Part shown: one piece after another, positions 12,824 to 22,366 of the stretch
How positions within the stretch are numbered: the first letter of the stretch is position 1
How the letters are laid out: the number at the start of each line of letters is the position of its first letter
Sequence record: OR437326.1
Reading direction: 5' to 3' (one strand)
From: Escherichia phage iGC_PHA_EC001
Length of the DNA: 64,000 nucleotides
Program-made: the position numbers and the translations under genes
Notes under the pieces: model-generated
Database searches by the model: none
What the model was told of the DNA's origin: nothing
What the model saw: only the letters and a program-made list of their open reading frames with translations

Positions 12824-13084
12824 TTACTCCGCAATTTGAGCCATGAGATCACGCAGTTCGGTAAAACCGCCTACGTATGTTACCTCCCCGTTCACTTCAG
12901 ACAGAATTTGTGGAAATGTGCGTGGAGGAACTCCGGTAAGATCAACAACTGTTTTAGTCATTGATTCTAAATCATAGTCTTGATCAAGACTTAAATATTC
13001 AAACTGTTTATTGCGCATGGTTAATAGTTGTTTTGACATTTCGCAAAATTGACAGTTAGGTTTACCAAAAATTACAAATTCCAT
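12824..13084 (-). CDS. glutaredoxin/NrdH-like thiol-disulfide oxidoreductase
   Basis: N-terminal FGKPNCQFC CxxC active-site motif in an 86-aa protein; RBS AAGGAGAGG; start overlaps rmlD stop. Confidence 0.6.
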   Translation of the reverse strand: MEFVIFGKPNCQFCEMSKQLLTMRNKQFEYLSLDQDYDLESMTKTVVDLTGVPPRTFPQILSEVNGEVTYVGGFTELRDLMAQIAE

Positions 13085-13926
13085 TACCTCTCCTTATTAA
13101 GTAATACTGCTAAAGACTGTTCAATACCTTTATTTAAATCTGATTTTGTAAGATAGTGACTGGTTACTAGTTGTGACTTCACCGGACGTGCTGCTGGAGC
13201 ATTATAGGTTGAAGCTGATACCGCCGATATCTTAACAGGTTCTGGCATCTGTGTCAAGATCTTTTCCGCAAACTCCGCCCAAGAAATAAGATGGCTTCCT
13301 GCAAAATGGTAAGTCTTAACAGACCTTGACCAACCTGTTTTTAATACTTCAAAAATAGCTTCTGCTAAATCTGGAGCATATGTTGGACAAGAGAACTGAT
13401 CAGCAACAATAATAAAATCACGTTGTCCATCATTATAGCGAGACAACATGGTTTTTAGAAAGTTATTTCCAAATTCGCTATATACCGAGGCTGTTCGAAT
13501 AATATATGTATTTGGGTTAACTCCTCGCACCATTTTTTCACCAAGTTCTTTCGTATACCCATAATTGTTTATTGGGTTAGGTGTAGTATCTTCAAAAATA
13601 GGATGAGAATAATTAAAAATATAATCTGTAGAAATATGCACAAAATCAATTTTAAGTTTGCTGCACACTGCCGCAATATTTGCAGGTCCATACGCATTAA
13701 CAGCCAAAGCAGTAGCAAAATCATGTTCTGCTTTATCTACAGCCGTATAAGCGGCGCAATTAATAACCCCATCTACATAATCTTCAAGAATAGCGTTTCG
13801 CACAGCTTCAAAATTTGTAATATCTACACGTTCTTTAGGATAAGTTAAAGATACATTTGAAGGAGCCACTTTACGTAAAGCTTGTCCCAGTTGTCCATTA
13901 CCGCCCAATACCAGATATGTTAGCAT
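13084..13926 (-). CDS. rmlD: dTDP-4-dehydrorhamnose reductase (RmlD-like)
   Basis: Rossmann LGGNGQLG; INCAAYTAVDKAE and HISTDYIF match RmlD signature blocks; 280 aa. Confidence 0.8.
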   Translation of the reverse strand: MLTYLVLGGNGQLGQALRKVAPSNVSLTYPKERVDITNFEAVRNAILEDYVDGVINCAAYTAVDKAEHDFATALAVNAYGPANIAAVCSKLKIDFVHISTDYIFNYSHPIFEDTTPNPINNYGYTKELGEKMVRGVNPNTYIIRTASVYSEFGNNFLKTMLSRYNDGQRDFIIVADQFSCPTYAPDLAEAIFEVLKTGWSRSVKTYHFAGSHLISWAEFAEKILTQMPEPVKISAVSASTYNAPAARPVKSQLVTSHYLTKSDLNKGIEQSLAVLLNKER

Positions 13927-14486
13927 ACACCCTCGCTACGTAACTGTTGAAAAGATTTAGCCATTGCATCTTTTGTTGATAAGATAGGTTTAAAACCTTC
14001 GTCAAAAATCATATCGAAGCCCCAATCGATCCCTATGTCAGGATCATCCCAACGTAAACTTTGTTCACTAGAAGGGTCGTATGGAGTTGTGCATTTGTAT
14101 TCAAAGATCGCATCCATACTCAAAACTATAAAACCATGTGCCAAACCAGGAGGAAGCCAAAACTGCGTATGGTGTCGTGCACGAAGAACAACACCGTCCC
14201 AAGCACCGTAAGTTGGACTATCTTTACGTAAATCTACAGCGAAATCCAATACTTCCCCACTTACACAACGAACAAGCTTACCTTGCGGATTATTTGTTTG
14301 AAAGTGCATTCCTCGCAAAACACCGAAGTTTGATTTAGACATATTATCTTGAACGAAAGTTTGTTTACCAATGATATCTTCGTATTTTTGTTCATTGTAT
14401 GTTTCTAAAAAGAAACCACGATCATCTTTATAAACGTCTGGTTTGATAATTACCGCACCTTCAATTTTTGTTTTTTCTACTTTCAT
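13920..14486 (-). CDS. rmlC: dTDP-4-dehydrorhamnose 3,5-epimerase (RmlC-like)
   Basis: DDRGFFLETYN, GVLRGMHFQ, KLVRCVSGEVLDFAVDLRKDSPTYG, PPGLAHGFIVLS align by eye with RmlC/RfbC along whole length. Confidence 0.85.
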   Translation of the reverse strand: MKVEKTKIEGAVIIKPDVYKDDRGFFLETYNEQKYEDIIGKQTFVQDNMSKSNFGVLRGMHFQTNNPQGKLVRCVSGEVLDFAVDLRKDSPTYGAWDGVVLRARHHTQFWLPPGLAHGFIVLSMDAIFEYKCTTPYDPSSEQSLRWDDPDIGIDWGFDMIFDEGFKPILSTKDAMAKSFQQLRSEGVC

Positions 14487-15112: not shown

Positions 15113-15321
15113 TATTCCTCCTTAATTATTTCAAACTTGGCAACACCATTTACAATAATATGACCACAAGACATAACTCCTAGCCAAGGATCGCCGTTTT
15201 TCTTCAGGCGTTTACCGAATACATCACAAAAACCATTCTTCATTTCGGAGGCTTCATAAGAAGCCCCTTTGTCAAAAACGTCTTTGAATGTGTCGATTAT
15301 ACCAACACATCTCAAAATCAT
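15112..15321 (-). CDS. hypothetical protein
   Basis: 69-aa ORF immediately downstream of nrdB. Confidence 0.4.
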   Translation of the reverse strand: MILRCVGIIDTFKDVFDKGASYEASEMKNGFCDVFGKRLKKNGDPWLGVMSCGHIIVNGVAKFEIIKEE

Positions 15322-16406
15322 TAGAAGTCAAGCTCCTCATCATCAGAGAGATCTTTGTTAGCTGAATTCAATTTGTAATTAGTTAACTGAATCTCTTGGG
15401 CTGCTGACTGAATCAAATCAGGATTCAACCATTTTTCCATCCAAGCTAAAGGACTATGTTTAGGTGCTTTAAACTTGGCTTTCATTTTCAATCGACGATA
15501 AATAGGAGCAGCATTGAAATAAACCCACTGTTTAGACAATTCGGCGTTAAGACCTACAATAAAACGACCTTCACTAAACAGGTAGTCACACCACTGTTCC
15601 TCTTGTTCAACAACAGTGTCGAGGATCAAAGTCAACTCTTCAATATTATCTTCGTAAATTTTACGCCAAATTGGGTCATGCATCAATGCATCAATTACAG
15701 CATAATCCATCTTAACATGCAAGATTTCATCTAGCATAATTTTCTGGATCAGTTTACAAGCCCCAACAAACAGTTGTTGTTCTGCCATAGCAAAAGTAGC
15801 AGAGAAGGAAGATATAAACTGAATACCTTCTAATCCAATCAGGGCTACCATCCCTTTAAGAATCAGCAATCGAAGTTCATCGTTAGCTTCAATCAATCCT
15901 AGAGCATACTTATGACCAGCTTCTTCCAACTGACCCATGATATCAGCAATGATACCCATACGATTGAAAATTTTATCATTAATCATAATCTGATTGATGA
16001 CTTCAATTGGATCTGGAGTACATTGACGGATTATTTCAGAATACGTTAACGCATGGAGAACTTCCATTTCACTCTGCTTCATCATCATAGCACAGGCTTC
16101 ATTGTTACTCAAGAATGGAGAGAACAAAGTGATGATTGATTTTGCAAGAGAATCATTTTCCCATTGGAACGATAAGTTTTTAATCATAACATCATAGTTG
16201 TTTTTAGAACAAGCTACGAAATCTTTACGTGTCTGATCCAGATTAACTTCGTTTTCATCCCAATCTTGTGCTTTTTGAAGTTTGTAGAGTTTGTGCATTT
16301 CTGGATAAGTTACGTTAACAGAATCAAAGATCCCTAATTGCTCCCCCAAAAATACTGGATATTTTCCTGTTTTGTAAACTTCATTGTGTAAATTAATTGC
16401 TGCCAT
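15321..16406 (-). CDS. nrdB: ribonucleotide reductase class Ia small (beta) subunit
   Basis: 361 aa with ferritin-like RNR small-subunit architecture; adjacent to nrdA; RBS GAGGAGAA. Confidence 0.8.
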   Translation of the reverse strand: MAAINLHNEVYKTGKYPVFLGEQLGIFDSVNVTYPEMHKLYKLQKAQDWDENEVNLDQTRKDFVACSKNNYDVMIKNLSFQWENDSLAKSIITLFSPFLSNNEACAMMMKQSEMEVLHALTYSEIIRQCTPDPIEVINQIMINDKIFNRMGIIADIMGQLEEAGHKYALGLIEANDELRLLILKGMVALIGLEGIQFISSFSATFAMAEQQLFVGACKLIQKIMLDEILHVKMDYAVIDALMHDPIWRKIYEDNIEELTLILDTVVEQEEQWCDYLFSEGRFIVGLNAELSKQWVYFNAAPIYRRLKMKAKFKAPKHSPLAWMEKWLNPDLIQSAAQEIQLTNYKLNSANKDLSDDEELDF

Positions 16407-16427: not shown

Positions 16428-16442
16428 GGGGGCCGAAGCCCC
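16428..16442 (-). terminator. GGGGGCCGAAGCCCC hairpin terminator (third copy)
   Basis: same palindrome as at 58 and 12143, followed on minus strand by TTTTATT and the nrdB RBS. Confidence 0.5.
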
Positions 16443-16449
16443 TTTATAT

Positions 16450-17106
16450 TTAGCCTCGAAATACTGTTTTTGTTTCCGCCAGGTGCCAATAGAAATCAGC
16501 TTTGTTTACAAGAGTGTTGTACACCTCTGGATAAAAATGTTCTTCCTCTTTGTAACGATCTGCTGTTTCCCTGATTGACTTAGCTTTATCCTTTAGCCAA
16601 GCGAAGTGTGCCTCTTCCTCTGTAGAGAAGTAGCCTAAATGCTTTCCTTTACTCCCAGAAGCTTTGGCATAAATCTTACCATCTTTCCTAACATGTGCTC
16701 CTAGTAAGTATTTTCTTTCATACCTCTTAGCATAACTTAAGAGTGTATTTATATAAGGAGGAACAAACCTACAATATTCAGGACAATAAACAGTATTTCC
16801 TTCAAGAACAAGATCTTTATCTAAAACAAAGCCTTCCACATTGTGTTCTTGATACCAGTTATCAAAGTTTGAAAAGGTGAACCAAGCATCACACACAGTA
16901 ACATCTTTATAACCTGGTCTAATGTTTTCCATACGATATGCACGATTAAACATGCCTTTCCAAGCTGCATAGGAAGGGTCTATGAATGTATTAACCCTTT
17001 TCCCATTGATAACACCACCTTCCCACAATCTACGTTCAACATCCACAATCAAGGGGATTTCTCCCCTCTCTGTGAGAACGGTAACTTTACGTTTACCCTT
17101 CTTCAT
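16450..17106 (-). CDS. putative free-standing homing endonuclease (AP2-like DNA-binding domain)
   Basis: sits between nrdA and nrdB, a classic homing-endonuclease site in phages; C-terminal GKHLGYFSTEEEAHFAW resembles AP2 domains of phage HNH/AP2 endonucleases; catalytic motif not confidently seen. Confidence 0.45.
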   Translation of the reverse strand: MKKGKRKVTVLTERGEIPLIVDVERRLWEGGVINGKRVNTFIDPSYAAWKGMFNRAYRMENIRPGYKDVTVCDAWFTFSNFDNWYQEHNVEGFVLDKDLVLEGNTVYCPEYCRFVPPYINTLLSYAKRYERKYLLGAHVRKDGKIYAKASGSKGKHLGYFSTEEEAHFAWLKDKAKSIRETADRYKEEEHFYPEVYNTLVNKADFYWHLAETKTVFRG

Positions 17107-17117
17107 CTGTTCTCCTA

Positions 17118-19361
17118 CTACATTTTACAGGCACTACACCCTTCGTCTTCAGAATCTTCTTGTGCTAAAGAATCTGCTGATTTTGTTCTACTGTTAAGGT
17201 AATACAATGACTTACCACCCAGTCTAGCAAAGTTCAAAATAAATTTCATCTCTTCTTTAACTGATAAACGTCCCCCTACCAATTTAGAATAATCTAGCCA
17301 AGAATCACAAGAAATTCCTTGGTCCGTAAACTTGGTAAAGATACCATACATTTCTGCAAGATCTTTAGCCGGAGTATCCCAGGCAGACTGGTAAAACATT
17401 TTCAGTTTTTCGTAGTCTGGAACAATAAATAATACACTACCTTTCTGACTTTGTTTATACATAATAGTATCACGAACAGGATACAGAGAGTTAGTAGTAT
17501 TGCTTACCAAACTGCTGGACTCATTAGGTGCAATAGCAGCCAAGACACTGTTACGGATACCACCTTGTTCAATGATTTCAGCACGTAAGCCTTCCCAGTC
17601 CATTTTAAGATCAAAATTACCGATACTATCTACTGTTTTAGCATAAGTGTCAATTGGTAGCCAACCTTGAGGCCATTTGGTCTTATCGATCCATTCTGCA
17701 TTACCTTTTTCCTTAGCCAGACGCAGAGAGGCTTTTGCCAACCAAAAGTAATGACGTTCTGCAAGTTCATGCATTAATTTTTTAGCATAAGCATCTGAAT
17801 AATTTACAAAATTACTTGCCAAGTAATGCGCTAAGTTTGTAATGCCTACACCAATAGATCTACGTGCTTTAGCAGTTATTTCGTTATGTTTAAATGGATA
17901 ATCCATTGTTTCAATAACGTTGTCAATTGTCAATACAGTGTAATATGCAACATCCTCATATTCTTCAGGTAAGACACGACCAGCAACAATAGAAGATAAG
18001 AAGCATAAAGCCAATTCTTGATCTTCTGTATTCTCACCAGTAAAGAGATCCGGCATACTGTGGAAAGCTTTAGTTGGTAAGAAGATCTCTTGACACAGGT
18101 TTGATTGATACACCGTATCCAGGAAAGGTGTATGGTTGTTAACGTTGTCAGCAAAGAACATGTAAATACGTCCTGTTTCTGCACGTTGAACAATAATCTC
18201 TGTCAGAAGATCACGAGCCTTAACAAATTTTTTCTTAATGCGACGACGGCTTACTTTGTCATAAACTGCATCAAACTCTTCTTCACTTTTATACAAAGCT
18301 TCATAAAGTTCAGGAGCATCATCACAACTAACTAACATCCAATCTTCGTTTTTTGCTGCTCGACGCAAGAACGAACGGTTAACAACAATAGAATAATCTA
18401 GTTTGTCTACTCGTTTATCTATAGGTGTTGTTGGATTCTTCAGTCGAATTAGATCGTCGAAGTCTGGTTCAAGTATGGTAAAGGTAACTGTAGCACTACC
18501 TCCACGACTTGCTTGCTTCGAAGCTCCAACACTATCTTCCATCCATTTCAGATACGGAAGAAGACCACCATGAATAATACGATTATTCTTAACACCTTGA
18601 CCTGTGGCACGAGTTTGAAGATTAACACCAATACCTGCGTTATTCAACGTATACTCATGAGCTAAGTAATTAGCAATGGCTAAAGATTCTGCCGTATCGT
18701 CTGCACGGAATAAGCAACAAGACGCACTTCCTTTGATTGGAGTTCGTAGAGTTGTCAGATACGGCGATGGCAGATTAATCTTAAGATCGCTAACATAAGT
18801 ATAAAGTTTTTTAATATCTTCTATACGGCGTTCTTTTGGTTGGATCTCCATAACCTTCATTGCGATACCAATGAAAAGAAACTGTGGAGACTCATGCACC
18901 ACATCGTTTACTGCATCTCGAATAAGATATTTATCTACCATCTGACGTAAAACAGAATAACCATAAGTTAGATTTTTATTATGCTTTACAATCTTACCGA
19001 TTTCTTTGATCTCTTCATCAGTATAATCCATTTTATCCCAATGTCCACGTTCTACCATATCATGATAAAAGGTATTCAGTGAAGGGATACTGTGGTATCC
19101 CCCATGAGCCTGTTTGTAAATCATACCCAGAAGAAGTCTTCCTGCCATATCACTGTAAGCTTGTGTTTTCTTGTCAATACACGCTGCAATCATTGCTTTA
19201 TGCAGATCACGTGTAGACACACCGTCATAACACCGCTTCACAGCTTCTAATTCAATTTCAGACCAGTTTAGTTTACCTGCTGCAAATTCAGACCACTTGC
19301 GAAGTTTTTCTGGATTAAACTCCTCTGTCTTACCGTTAGATTTAGTTACAAAACGAATCAA
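17118..19361 (-). CDS. nrdA: ribonucleotide reductase class Ia large (alpha) subunit
   Basis: 747 aa; N-terminal ATP-cone-like region, conserved Cys-containing blocks and C-terminal Cys pair (CSACKM); TTG start after GGGAGGAG RBS. Confidence 0.9.
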   Translation of the reverse strand: MIRFVTKSNGKTEEFNPEKLRKWSEFAAGKLNWSEIELEAVKRCYDGVSTRDLHKAMIAACIDKKTQAYSDMAGRLLLGMIYKQAHGGYHSIPSLNTFYHDMVERGHWDKMDYTDEEIKEIGKIVKHNKNLTYGYSVLRQMVDKYLIRDAVNDVVHESPQFLFIGIAMKVMEIQPKERRIEDIKKLYTYVSDLKINLPSPYLTTLRTPIKGSASCCLFRADDTAESLAIANYLAHEYTLNNAGIGVNLQTRATGQGVKNNRIIHGGLLPYLKWMEDSVGASKQASRGGSATVTFTILEPDFDDLIRLKNPTTPIDKRVDKLDYSIVVNRSFLRRAAKNEDWMLVSCDDAPELYEALYKSEEEFDAVYDKVSRRRIKKKFVKARDLLTEIIVQRAETGRIYMFFADNVNNHTPFLDTVYQSNLCQEIFLPTKAFHSMPDLFTGENTEDQELALCFLSSIVAGRVLPEEYEDVAYYTVLTIDNVIETMDYPFKHNEITAKARRSIGVGITNLAHYLASNFVNYSDAYAKKLMHELAERHYFWLAKASLRLAKEKGNAEWIDKTKWPQGWLPIDTYAKTVDSIGNFDLKMDWEGLRAEIIEQGGIRNSVLAAIAPNESSSLVSNTTNSLYPVRDTIMYKQSQKGSVLFIVPDYEKLKMFYQSAWDTPAKDLAEMYGIFTKFTDQGISCDSWLDYSKLVGGRLSVKEEMKFILNFARLGGKSLYYLNSRTKSADSLAQEDSEDEGCSACKM

Positions 19362-20056: not shown

Positions 20057-20080
20057 GAATGGGAGGACTCACCTCCTCCC
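20057..20080 (-). other. perfect inverted repeat GGGAGGA(GG/..)TCCTCCC, stem-loop between ThyX-like gene and next gene
   Basis: plus 20057-20080 gggaggactcacctcctccc; no strong T-run, so regulatory or processing hairpin rather than canonical terminator. Confidence 0.4.
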
Positions 20081-20137
20081 AGTATTGTGCTATATTATAC
20101 TAAAACTAATACTAAAGTCAATAACTATTTAAACAGA

Positions 20138-21145: not shown

Positions 21146-21754
21146 TTAGTTTTTAAAATTGTTCAAAGTGTTAAAAACATCCAAACATGTTAGCCACTGA
21201 TCTTCTAAACCTGTGATCACAACATTTGGTTTTTTCTTTAGTTCTTCTAGATGGTTATCTTTATAAGGCGTATTAAAATATATTTTAACCACTTCATCTG
21301 GAAAATATAGTAGGTTATCAGCCCTGTCATCTATTGCTATATCACAAGGCAATAAGTATTTTTCTTTCGTAGCAAAAAAGCCGTTACCAGATCCTTTGCT
21401 AAAATCAATCGTATCTAATGTTCTTAAAACATGCTTATGTTTAGAACTTAAGTGACCACCTTTTGTCACACTTGCGATCAAAAGATTGCTACCTTTCCTT
21501 GAAACATACTTTAAGAAATCTGGCATACCTGGAACAAAACCCATTGTATCATAGAGATGAGGATTATCCAGAAATCCGTAAGGATCTATATTGAACTCCT
21601 CCCTGAAACCAGGAAAGTAGTTGGTAAGATCATAGTCTGCATTTTTTGTGAATGTGTCTATCTTAACACCAAGTCCACTAATCTTATTCAACCATTCTAA
21701 CCAAGCAACATCTAATGGAGCCACAACTAAATCCCAATCACATACTATCTGCAT
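21146..21754 (-). CDS. HAD-superfamily 5'(3')-deoxyribonucleotidase-like protein
   Basis: N-terminal MQIVCDWDLVV fits HAD motif I DxDxV; size and context with nucleotide metabolism genes. Confidence 0.55.
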   Translation of the reverse strand: MQIVCDWDLVVAPLDVAWLEWLNKISGLGVKIDTFTKNADYDLTNYFPGFREEFNIDPYGFLDNPHLYDTMGFVPGMPDFLKYVSRKGSNLLIASVTKGGHLSSKHKHVLRTLDTIDFSKGSGNGFFATKEKYLLPCDIAIDDRADNLLYFPDEVVKIYFNTPYKDNHLEELKKKPNVVITGLEDQWLTCLDVFNTLNNFKN

Positions 21755-21790: not shown

Positions 21791-22366
21791 CTAACTTTCA
21801 ATTTCCTGCAATAGGATTTTGACTATTTGTTTACGGCGTTTTGCTACTGTGCTTTCAGGTTCTATTTTACGCTTCTTCAGCCACGCTTTATCTTTCTTAG
21901 CTCTACACAAAGCTATCGCTTCTTTTTCAGCTTTTGCTTCTTCAAAAGATATGCCTTGCTTGTCTGCATAAGCAAGAATAGAGTTGCACAATTTACAAAC
22001 CATTCGCAAATCTTCTTCTTTCACATAGATCAAACGGAAAACAAAAAGGGGAATATCCTCAAAACATTGAAGTTGTTTTGCTGCGTGAATATGATCCACT
22101 TGGAAGTCTTTCATTCCTCCTCTGTGTCCACATATTTCGCACTCACAATTCCAAACTTGTTTTGGTTTTCCAGTTTTCTTGTCTATCATCACATTGCCGT
22201 CTTTATCTACACGATCAACTTTAAAACGCCTTGCATTGATAACCTTAATTTTATTAGGGTGTCTCATCCATGCTTTTCTAAAACATCCCCTAAGATAAGT
22301 ATAAAATTCAGCTTGTGTTTTCCAGGGTGTTCCTTCACCCCACATTATTTTTGGTTCACCTGCCAA
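21791..22366 (-). CDS. HNH homing endonuclease
   Basis: CECEICGHRG ... FQVDHIH ... CKLCNS HNH/zinc motif; probable TTG start after GGTGAG RBS. Confidence 0.7.
   Translation of the reverse strand: MAGEPKIMWGEGTPWKTQAEFYTYLRGCFRKAWMRHPNKIKVINARRFKVDRVDKDGNVMIDKKTGKPKQVWNCECEICGHRGGMKDFQVDHIHAAKQLQCFEDIPLFVFRLIYVKEEDLRMVCKLCNSILAYADKQGISFEEAKAEKEAIALCRAKKDKAWLKKRKIEPESTVAKRRKQIVKILLQEIES

Follow-up and report, generated by a model that had tools for sequence, protein, structure and literature searches.

What kind of gene lies between nrdA and nrdB, encoding the large and small subunits of ribonucleotide reductase (RNR), in Escherichia phage iGC_PHA_EC001, and is it of the same kind as an HNH-motif gene located only 5 kb away? 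The DNA that we have analyzed, referred to in what follows as the window, is a stretch of 64,000 nucleotides (64 kb) from sequence record OR437326.1 and derives from a phAPEC8-like coliphage (genus Phapecoctavirus, Stephanstirmvirinae), the region of interest being 95-99.5% identical to such phages. On the minus strand nrdA is followed by an 11-nt spacer, an open reading frame (ORF) of 218 aa at 16450-17106 that we call ORF1, a GC hairpin and nrdB, and a second ORF of 191 aa, ORF2, is found at 21791-22366 beside NT5C-like and Thy1-like genes; both ORFs are present as listed in a preliminary description of this DNA. That description had taken the two for probable mobile selfish elements, ORF1 as a homing-endonuclease-like gene with an AP2-like C-terminus and ORF2 as an HNH endonuclease. 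The evidence presented here argues that ORF1 is a homing endonuclease gene, free-standing and of the IPA-HNH class, inserted between the nrdA stop codon and a resident hairpin upstream of nrdB and homing as had been proposed, with ORF2 a separate matter, and to this reading we assign a probability of about 80%.

The nrdA/nrdB junctions of related phages were compared for presence or absence of the insert, a check that had been suggested along with the original claim. Seventy-four records contain the nrdAB region; a probe for the empty junction is fully matched in 43 phage records and ORF1 is present in 21. Relative to the insert-free phage WPEC1, the window carries a cassette of 705 bp in place of 35 bp, made up of a recoded nrdA 3' end, a spacer with a Shine-Dalgarno sequence, the endonuclease ORF and a 6-nt trailer, and its flanks share 98-99.9% identity with those of the empty allele. 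The sequence common to both alleles starts, on the nrdB side, with the hairpin GGGGCTTCGGCCCC, and on the nrdA side divergence starts ∼31 nt ahead of the nrdA stop codon. The recoded nrdA tail differs from that of the empty allele by 12 mismatches in 30 aligned nt and a one-codon indel, and NrdA, which terminates in ...DSDGGCEACKM when the junction is empty, terminates in ...DSEDEGCSACKM (final residues EDEGCSACKM) in carriers. A third variant of the ORF, in EF1-1, is paired with a third tail, ...NLKESGCEGCSM, and the three nrdA tails therefore correspond to three states of the junction: DGGCEACKM where it is empty, EDEGCSACKM with the ORF1 type, and NLKESGCEGCSM with the EF1-1 variant.

Remnants of the cassette are found as well. 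In ZCKP1 an internal deletion has left the recoded tail together with ∼40 nt from the 5' end of the ORF and ∼155 nt from its 3' end, and DE16 shows a clean deletion with TAAAG microhomology at the breakpoints, the hairpin there being joined without a gap to what is left, namely 21 nt of the ORF preceded by the Shine-Dalgarno sequence and the recoded tail. Base composition shows no anomaly, the GC fraction being 0.37-0.38 throughout ORF1 and its flanks, and the notion of a foreign origin of ORF1 based on composition is rejected for this reason.

Transfer between genera is evident from VEcB, a Justusliebigvirus, where the cassette (∼16450-17190 in the window) forms a sharp island of 94-100% identity in a background of 70-85%; in phi92 the ORF and nrdA tail are 90-92% identical and the flanks 73-80%. 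Within the genus the pattern is reversed, with ORFs that are ∼80% identical residing in backbones of 98-99%, and ORF variants are mosaic, that of ESCO5 showing 100% identity over the first 60 nt followed by 72-75%, and that of EF1-1 showing 56-75% at the 5' end and 97-98% in the last 180 nt. Among carriers and scars the 300 nt of nrdA beside the insert are 94-95% identical, compared with 98-99% for the rest of the gene, and in the same comparison no comparable drop is seen on the nrdB side; the break, or the start of recombination, was probably on the nrdA side. Site-specific presence and absence, remnants, a co-travelling nrdA tail and inter-genus transfer all agree with the mobile, selfish character that had been ascribed to ORF1, and the record of alleles is what would be expected for the cycle of a homing endonuclease at a fixed site.

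A close parallel is provided by T4, where MobE, a free-standing HNH endonuclease, is encoded between nrdA and nrdB (Wilson & Edgell 2009, PMC2790892). The mobE gene is promoterless and dependent on nrdA transcription, is expressed with the involvement of a hairpin terminator and is mobilized with flanking nrd sequence (PMC2790892). ORF1 occupies the same niche in the same arrangement, a comparison made by description and not by sequence homology. The two differ in that MobE is of the canonical HNH/Mob class, requires its HNH motif for nicking and nicks in nrdB, on the downstream side (PMC2790892), whereas for ORF1 the polymorphism gradient and the recoded segment are on the nrdA side, the canonical His is absent and there is no Pfam HNH match. 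The T4 nrd locus also supplies an argument for a different view of ORF1, namely that it is defunct or carried along passively, and owes its movement to a different endonuclease acting in trans or to general recombination at a hotspot, since a defunct I-TevIII is mobilized there by MobE (PMC2790892), and HNH_3 and LAGLIDADG genes do occur in relatives ∼3 kb away, downstream of thyX. We consider a passenger very improbable, as the transferred island stops sharply at the cassette borders and does not reach a further nuclease gene, most carriers have an intact ORF in which the core residues are invariant, no sporadic endonuclease gene lies beside the cassette, and a search of the 64-kb window for a second member of the ORF1 family (or of the ORF2 family) found none.

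The hairpin itself, a 5-bp GC stem (GGGGC-UUCG-GCCCC) followed by a U-run, is located 6 nt past the ORF1 stop codon. It had been described as the insert's own terminator, bracketing the gene; a GC hairpin is indeed found at that place, on the downstream side only, and it is present also in the empty allele of WPEC1, directly after nrdA. Because genomes lacking the ORF have it in the same place, the hairpin is resident and not owned by the insert, and its assignment as the insert's own terminator is rejected. In the distant relative L012 the stem is kept just after the stop codon of the homing endonuclease gene, with a GAAA loop there and UUCG in the window, and phi92 has the version GGGGTTTCGGCCCC. 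The conserved GGGGC/GCCCC stem, closed in either case by a stable tetraloop, suggests that the RNA hairpin itself is under selection. Its significance derives from conservation across alleles and not from shuffle statistics, as neither the number of terminator-like sites in the region (6 vs 4.4 in shuffles) nor the stability of the hairpin in a 71-nt context (z=0.07 vs shuffles) is in excess. The ATG of ORF1 is 11 nt past the nrdA stop codon, with AGGAG ahead of it, and since this spacer leaves no space for a promoter ORF1 is most likely co-transcribed with nrdA, with termination or attenuation at the resident hairpin.

The junction accommodates a separate insert of 324 bp, carrying an ORF of 112/113 aa (phrog_17458, unknown function) whose stop codon overlaps the nrdB start, between the resident hairpin and nrdB. 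It is found in ZCKP1, ECML-183-2, ESCO5, phAPEC8 and metagenomic relatives (1913-2237 in L002, 1121-1459 in L007 and 4691-5032 in L012, and also in L003) and is absent from the window, where the equivalent site is ∼16412/16413. This insert segregates independently of the endonuclease gene, all four combinations having been found, and possibly represents another small mobile unit of the nrdA/nrdB junction.

To which class of protein does ORF1 belong? With ORF1 alone as the query, Pfam and NCBIfam return nothing usable, the sole entry being DUF4170 at E=0.046, and a PDB sequence search gives chance matches only. ORF1 does match phrog_953, 'HNH endonuclease', at 6.6e-57, and its family is very large, at least 943 proteins being recovered in a word-indexed profile search and 38,091 representative clusters at E<=1e-3 in an exhaustive one. 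By tblastn, homologues are located in 1,506 phage records at 2,555 places, often several per genome, with ICP1 and the Rheinheimera Barba phages included. The match in ICP1_2006_D (32% identity over 71% of ORF1, E=1e-15) is to the ORF directly downstream of the DNA polymerase gene, which by its position is presumably gp59. Homologues in the RefSeq records of nieznany, ESCO5, phi92 and VEcB are already labelled 'HNH endonuclease'.

The AP2-like DNA-binding signature that had been recognized near the C-terminus is borne out once the family is considered. GKHLGYFSTEEEAHFAW is found in the ORF1 translation inside the region that matches AP2/ERF domains by profile, and the family profile matches solved plant AP2/ERF domains (WRI1 at 3.7e-5, ERF096 at 0.022 and AtERF1 at 0.048); Pfam AP2 is detected in 51 of 120 ORF1 relatives, ORF1 alone being under Pfam detection. 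In the AlphaFold (AF2) model of ORF1, with a predicted local distance difference test (pLDDT) score of 87 and a predicted template modeling (pTM) score of 0.80, the C-terminal part consists of three strands (137-139, 145-148, 156-160) and then a helix (163-186).

Proteins with an HNH_3-related N-terminal domain that is too divergent for Pfam HNH_3, joined to a C-terminal AP2, make up the IPA-HNH class of Barth, Dunham & Seed (2023, PMC10448857), which is enriched in ICP1 and Barbaviruses and has 18% of its copies adjoining RNR genes (PMC10448857). The divergent HNH_3-like N-terminus, the C-terminal AP2 and the ICP1/Barba homologues of ORF1 match the published class, of which ORF1 is a member. 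It has in common with the IPA-HNH genes of ICP1 (gp59, gp115-116, gp209) their architecture and frequent RNR-adjacent placing, together with sequence homology to the ORF next to the DNA polymerase gene, and it differs from published members in its host group, the Stephanstirmvirinae coliphages, in belonging to a lineage specialized for the nrdA/nrdB junction, and in a short N-terminal beta-hairpin extension where other IPA-HNH proteins have DUF723 or zinc-ribbon modules. The class is thus already published and ORF1, a new and well-documented member, will not surprise a specialist. HNH-AP2 endonucleases have been put forward as the ancestors of the plant AP2/ERF factors (Magnani et al. 2004, as cited in PMC10448857 and PMC5714182). 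Those genes resemble ORF1 in joining an HNH-type domain to AP2 in phage or bacterial mobile genes, and differ, as far as the citing papers describe them, in having a recognizable HNH domain where ORF1 has a His-less variant.

In the model the predicted catalytic core, as assigned by DSSP, comprises strand 94-96, a loop, strand 113-115 and helix 117-123. Alignment of this core, VLDKDLVLEGNTVYCPEYCRFVPPYIN, with the I-HmuI motif VVDHKDGNKDNNLSTNLRWVTQKIN (I-HmuI sequence checked against PDB 1U3E) equates D96 with D74, K97 with H75 and N120 with N96, at an hhalign E value of 0.09 that is not significant. Counts taken from a hidden Markov model (HMM) alignment of 263 family members establish that R55, Y66, W84, D96, K97, D98, C112 and N120 are invariant (263/263), that Y107 is present in 262, and that there is no invariant His anywhere among the members aligned. 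In this non-significant register the position of the HNH general-base His is held by K97 in all 263 proteins, with the acidic residue before it, D96, and N120 at a metal-ligand position invariant as well. Such invariance implies that the D96-K97-D98 site is under strict selection, yet without a histidine.

Because direct comparisons with HNH proteins are non-significant, the link between ORF1 and HNH rests on topology, motif register and a bridge through PHROG families. This bridge, the only significant connection and an indirect one, consists in matches of I-HmuI residues 63-103 to phrog_374 (2.8e-5) and phrog_3377; the columns concerned lie within those matched by ORF1, at 1.5e-40 and 5e-9. 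I-HmuI, an HNH_3-type nicking homing endonuclease from phage SPO1, has the beta-beta-alpha core predicted for ORF1 with the motif in the same register and both match the two PHROG families; it differs in its catalytic H75, replaced by K97 in ORF1, in its DNA-binding module, NUMOD/helix-turn-helix as opposed to AP2, and in being intron-encoded whereas ORF1 is free-standing. Fold matches in BFVD were set aside as evidence of an HNH fold because they recover the same family and are not independent.

A number of results weigh against ORF1 as a homing endonuclease gene. The canonical catalytic His is absent from the family, none of 120 ORF1 relatives reaches any Pfam HNH model, and a Foldseek search of the PDB for folds like that of the ORF1 model finds none below E=0.3. 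The hhalign comparison of the family profile with I-HmuI stops at the E of 0.09 given above and that with the HNH family of ORF2 at 0.27, the family HMM scores ∼0 bits both on I-HmuI and on the Pfam-HNH_3 ORF of L013, and the literature searched yields no biochemical work or nuclease activity for any IPA-HNH member. In addition, relatives with 50-58% protein identity occupy the nrdA/nrdB junction of metagenomic phage contigs, beside an NrdA that is up to 90% identical. Such site specialization speaks for homing, but to find one lineage at this site in rather distant phages would also be expected if it had long resided there and had now and then been lost. An HNH or GIY-YIG catalytic domain, which had been anticipated for ORF1, is not to be taken as given: the PHROG-bridge link to I-HmuI stands, but both a Pfam HNH match and the general-base His, Lys in every member, are missing.

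Some of these same results would be produced by a catalytically dead, endonuclease-derived DNA-binding protein, serving as a regulator of nrd or as a repressor directed against the host or competitors, with a patchy distribution arising from ordinary recombination and loss. The replacement of the general-base His by Lys throughout the family and the lack of matches to Pfam HNH models or solved nucleases speak for such a protein, AP2 domains are pure DNA binders in the phage CasPR anti-CRISPRs (bioRxiv 10.64898/2026.02.23.707548), His-less His-Me domains such as Smad MH1 bind DNA (PMC5714182), and the phi92 record refers to a 'potential transcription factor'. A regulator, however, is not expected to carry a recoded part of the adjacent essential gene, to appear as a sharp 94-100% island in another genus, to occur in multiple copies per genome beside essential genes, or to be cleanly deleted without other change, and the absolute conservation of D96, K97, D98 and N120 at metal-site positions suggests chemistry beyond binding; we regard a dead DNA-binding protein as unlikely.

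Precedents for loss of the histidine are few. Within the superfamily of His-Me fingers only three groups are without it, two of them inactive (PMC5714182): PacI uses an omega-loop tyrosine, and Smad MH1 and Enpp are the inactive ones (PMC5714182). Y107 of ORF1 is placed in the loop that corresponds to the PacI omega-loop, and an active Lys- or Tyr-based variant of the site in ORF1 is, in view of the genetic behavior, plausible. A broader proposal, to which we give somewhat less than even odds, is that the IPA-HNH family (at least 38,000 clusters) is an active His-Me finger branch without the general-base His, in which the invariant Lys97 or, in the manner of PacI, the omega-loop Tyr107 would nick or cut DNA together with a D96/N120 metal site. 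The His-to-Lys replacement seen in the ORF1 family is not part of the discussion in the IPA-HNH paper (PMC10448857). For this tentative proposal the coliphage locus is a ready natural genetic system, since a single E. coli K-12 host is shared by alleles that are intact, decayed, empty or reduced to a presumably immune scar; K-12 MG1655 is the strain on which the carrier nieznany and the insert-free tuntematon, ukendt, anhysbys and nepoznato were isolated.

Returning to ORF1 as a homing endonuclease gene, we infer its nuclease activity, its target site, the nature of the cut (nick or double-strand break) and the immunity of carriers, and the process may be pictured as follows. In a co-infected cell the ORF1 protein would bind the insert-free allele via its AP2-like domain and nick or cut near the nrdA 3' end, at the codons of the C-terminal Cys pair and/or beside the GC hairpin, and recombinational repair off the insert-bearing genome would then copy ORF1 along with the adjacent recoded ∼30 nt of nrdA. 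The putative target would be bipartite, comprising the nrdA tail and the hairpin, and since in carriers it would be both split by ∼660 bp and recoded, these are probably immune. The recoded segment covers the codons of the NrdA C-terminal Cys pair, the redox shuttle of class Ia RNR, and homing endonucleases tend toward conserved, function-critical target sequences. AP2 domains prefer GC-rich DNA (PMC10448857), and the GC hairpin is the sole GC-rich element of the empty site.

Is ORF2 a second element of this sort? As an HNH-motif protein it is as had been claimed. ORF2 matches phrog_1985 at 6.8e-66, its D91-H92 is invariant in 47 homologues, and CxxC pairs at 76/79 and 125/128 flank the HNH motif, giving the features CxxC...DH...CxxCN. 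The best PDB match that Foldseek finds for the AF2 model (pLDDT 94) is Gme HNH, 4H9D, with a probability of 0.99 and a root-mean-square deviation of 2.3 over a 59-residue core. ORF2 is itself under the Pfam HNH cut-off (15.0 vs 21.4 bits), several homologues carry PF01844, and a search of PDB sequences with the ORF2 profile gives no significant relative. Gme HNH, a nicking endonuclease of the small zinc-knuckle phage type, shares the HNH core fold with ORF2, which differs by helical extensions of ∼70 residues at the N-terminus and ∼60 at the C-terminus and by its setting in replication and nucleotide metabolism. Some resemblance to endonuclease VII is seen, with 14.5 bits for Pfam Endonuclease_7 (cut-off 23.6) and 9.2e-6 for phrog_2914 'endonuclease VII'; an hhalign comparison with T4 gp49 is not significant (E=0.08), and for this reason the identification was not adopted.

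Where the preliminary description does not hold is in grouping ORF2 with the sporadic mobile elements. The 2.3-kb region around the gene is a single uninterrupted match in 67 of 72 relatives, and tblastn locates ORF2 in 552 records at 553 places, establishing one copy per genome. Homologues with ∼30% identity are present in Nankokuvirus LSL4, where the gene, upstream of thymidylate synthase and nrdA, has an exonuclease on one side and the polymerase exonuclease subunit on the other, and in phiEcoM-GJ1, between a 5'-3' exonuclease and DNA ligase. Uninterrupted in its relatives and syntenic in distant genera, ORF2 is thus a core gene whose occurrence is not that of a sporadic selfish element, and the best reading is that of an HNH nuclease, inherited vertically, that belongs to a replication/recombination and nucleotide-metabolism module and is not part of a mobile element. 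It could be argued that ORF2 is also a selfish homing endonuclease gene, old and by now fixed, given the genuine HNH motif and the Gme HNH fold match, the 'HNH endonuclease' label in both PHROG and RefSeq, and the existence of free-standing homing endonucleases with an Endo VII-type motif (F-CphI, as cited in PMC10448857). We hold this to be quite unlikely in view of the full-length, uninterrupted match among relatives, the single copy per genome and the similar replication neighborhood of the Nankokuvirus and phiEcoM-GJ1 homologues; no empty-site ORF2 allele was seen. The listed TTG start of ORF2 (22366) overlaps an upstream 77-aa ORF; the start may instead be an ATG at 22344, which gives the 184-aa form of the public proteins (P0122).

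With ORF1 read as a homing endonuclease gene, the nrdA/nrdB locus is a compact natural record of the homing life cycle, in which one can follow invasion, spread between genera, diversification into mosaics, decay from within and clean loss with a recoded scar. The gene at whose 3' end this record lies is essential, and the phages are under development for therapy and biocontrol. The locus illustrates why, when phage genomes are compared, synteny is lost at nrdA/nrdB junctions and recombination boundaries are found there, and how the RefSeq label 'HNH endonuclease' can be shared, within 5 kb, by genes as unlike as a selfish one of sporadic occurrence and one for a fixed core enzyme. The wider interest is in a very abundant endonuclease-like family without the catalytic histidine, and the allele series together with the His-less active site gives ORF1 some value as an experimental system. 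Coordinates of all features are collected in Table 1.

Table 1. Features of the nrdA/nrdB and ORF2 regions, in window coordinates.
Feature	Position	Strand	Basis
Whole mobile cassette relative to the empty allele	16444..17148	-	BLAST breakpoints and junction sequences vs WPEC1
ORF1, 218 aa, IPA-HNH-class free-standing homing endonuclease gene	16450..17106	-	ORF listing, phrog_953, ICP1 homology
Predicted beta-beta-alpha core, ORF1 residues 94-123, VLDKDLVLEGNTVYCPEYCRFVPPYINTLL	16738..16827	-	DSSP on AF2 model, hhalign register (E=0.09, not significant), PHROG bridge
Codons of ORF1 D96-K97-D98	16813..16821	-	Family HMM alignment, translation
AP2-like DNA-binding domain, ORF1 residues 134-186	16549..16707	-	Family profile, Pfam AP2 in relatives, AF2 model
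Spacer from nrdA stop to ORF1 ATG, 11 nt, Shine-Dalgarno AGGAG	17107..17117	-	Sequence AAAATGTAGTAGGAGAACAGATGAAG
Recoded nrdA 3' end, travels with ORF1	17118..17148	-	Alignment vs empty allele
Resident nrdA/nrdB intergenic GC hairpin	16429..16442	-	Terminator scan, empty allele WPEC1
nrdA, class Ia RNR large subunit, upstream host gene	17118..19361	-	Pfam Ribonuc_red_lgC 1.8e-97; phrog_84
nrdB, RNR small subunit, downstream host gene	15321..16406	-	Pfam Ribonuc_red_sm 6.3e-33; phrog_86
ORF2, 191 aa, conserved zinc-knuckle HNH nuclease, outside mobile element	21791..22366	-	phrog_1985, fold match, synteny
NT5C-like gene adjoining ORF2	21146-21754		
Thy1-like gene near ORF2, 332 aa	20138-21136		

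Several smaller observations concern the records and the neighboring genes. Campylobacter phage B15/C3, Acinetobacter phage ABPW7, Klebsiella phage ZCKP1 and Dompiswa phage TSP7_1 share ∼99% identity with coliphage Phapecoctavirus in the nrd/ORF2 regions, and their host labels therefore look doubtful; in the ECML-183-2 record nrdA and the endonuclease gene are both unannotated. The 332-aa ThyX-like protein has a weak and partial Pfam Thy1 match (5e-8, residues 22-174) and a strong one to phrog_85 (1.6e-108), and is a divergent relative of flavin-dependent thymidylate synthase. The site 3' of its gene is empty in the window (20073-20137) and in L012, and is occupied by a Pfam-HNH_3 ORF in L013 (578-1006) and by a LAGLIDADG ORF in L014 (570-989); it is a second homing-endonuclease hotspot, ∼3 kb from the nrd junction. 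Finally, two ORFs 3' of nrdB (13084-14486; 280 aa and 188 aa) have counterparts in related contigs that match Pfam RmlD_sub_bind and dTDP_sugar_isom, and the contigs with these genes also encode NTP_transferase and epimerase, amounting to a dTDP-sugar pathway in a phage, perhaps for modification of DNA or of a surface.

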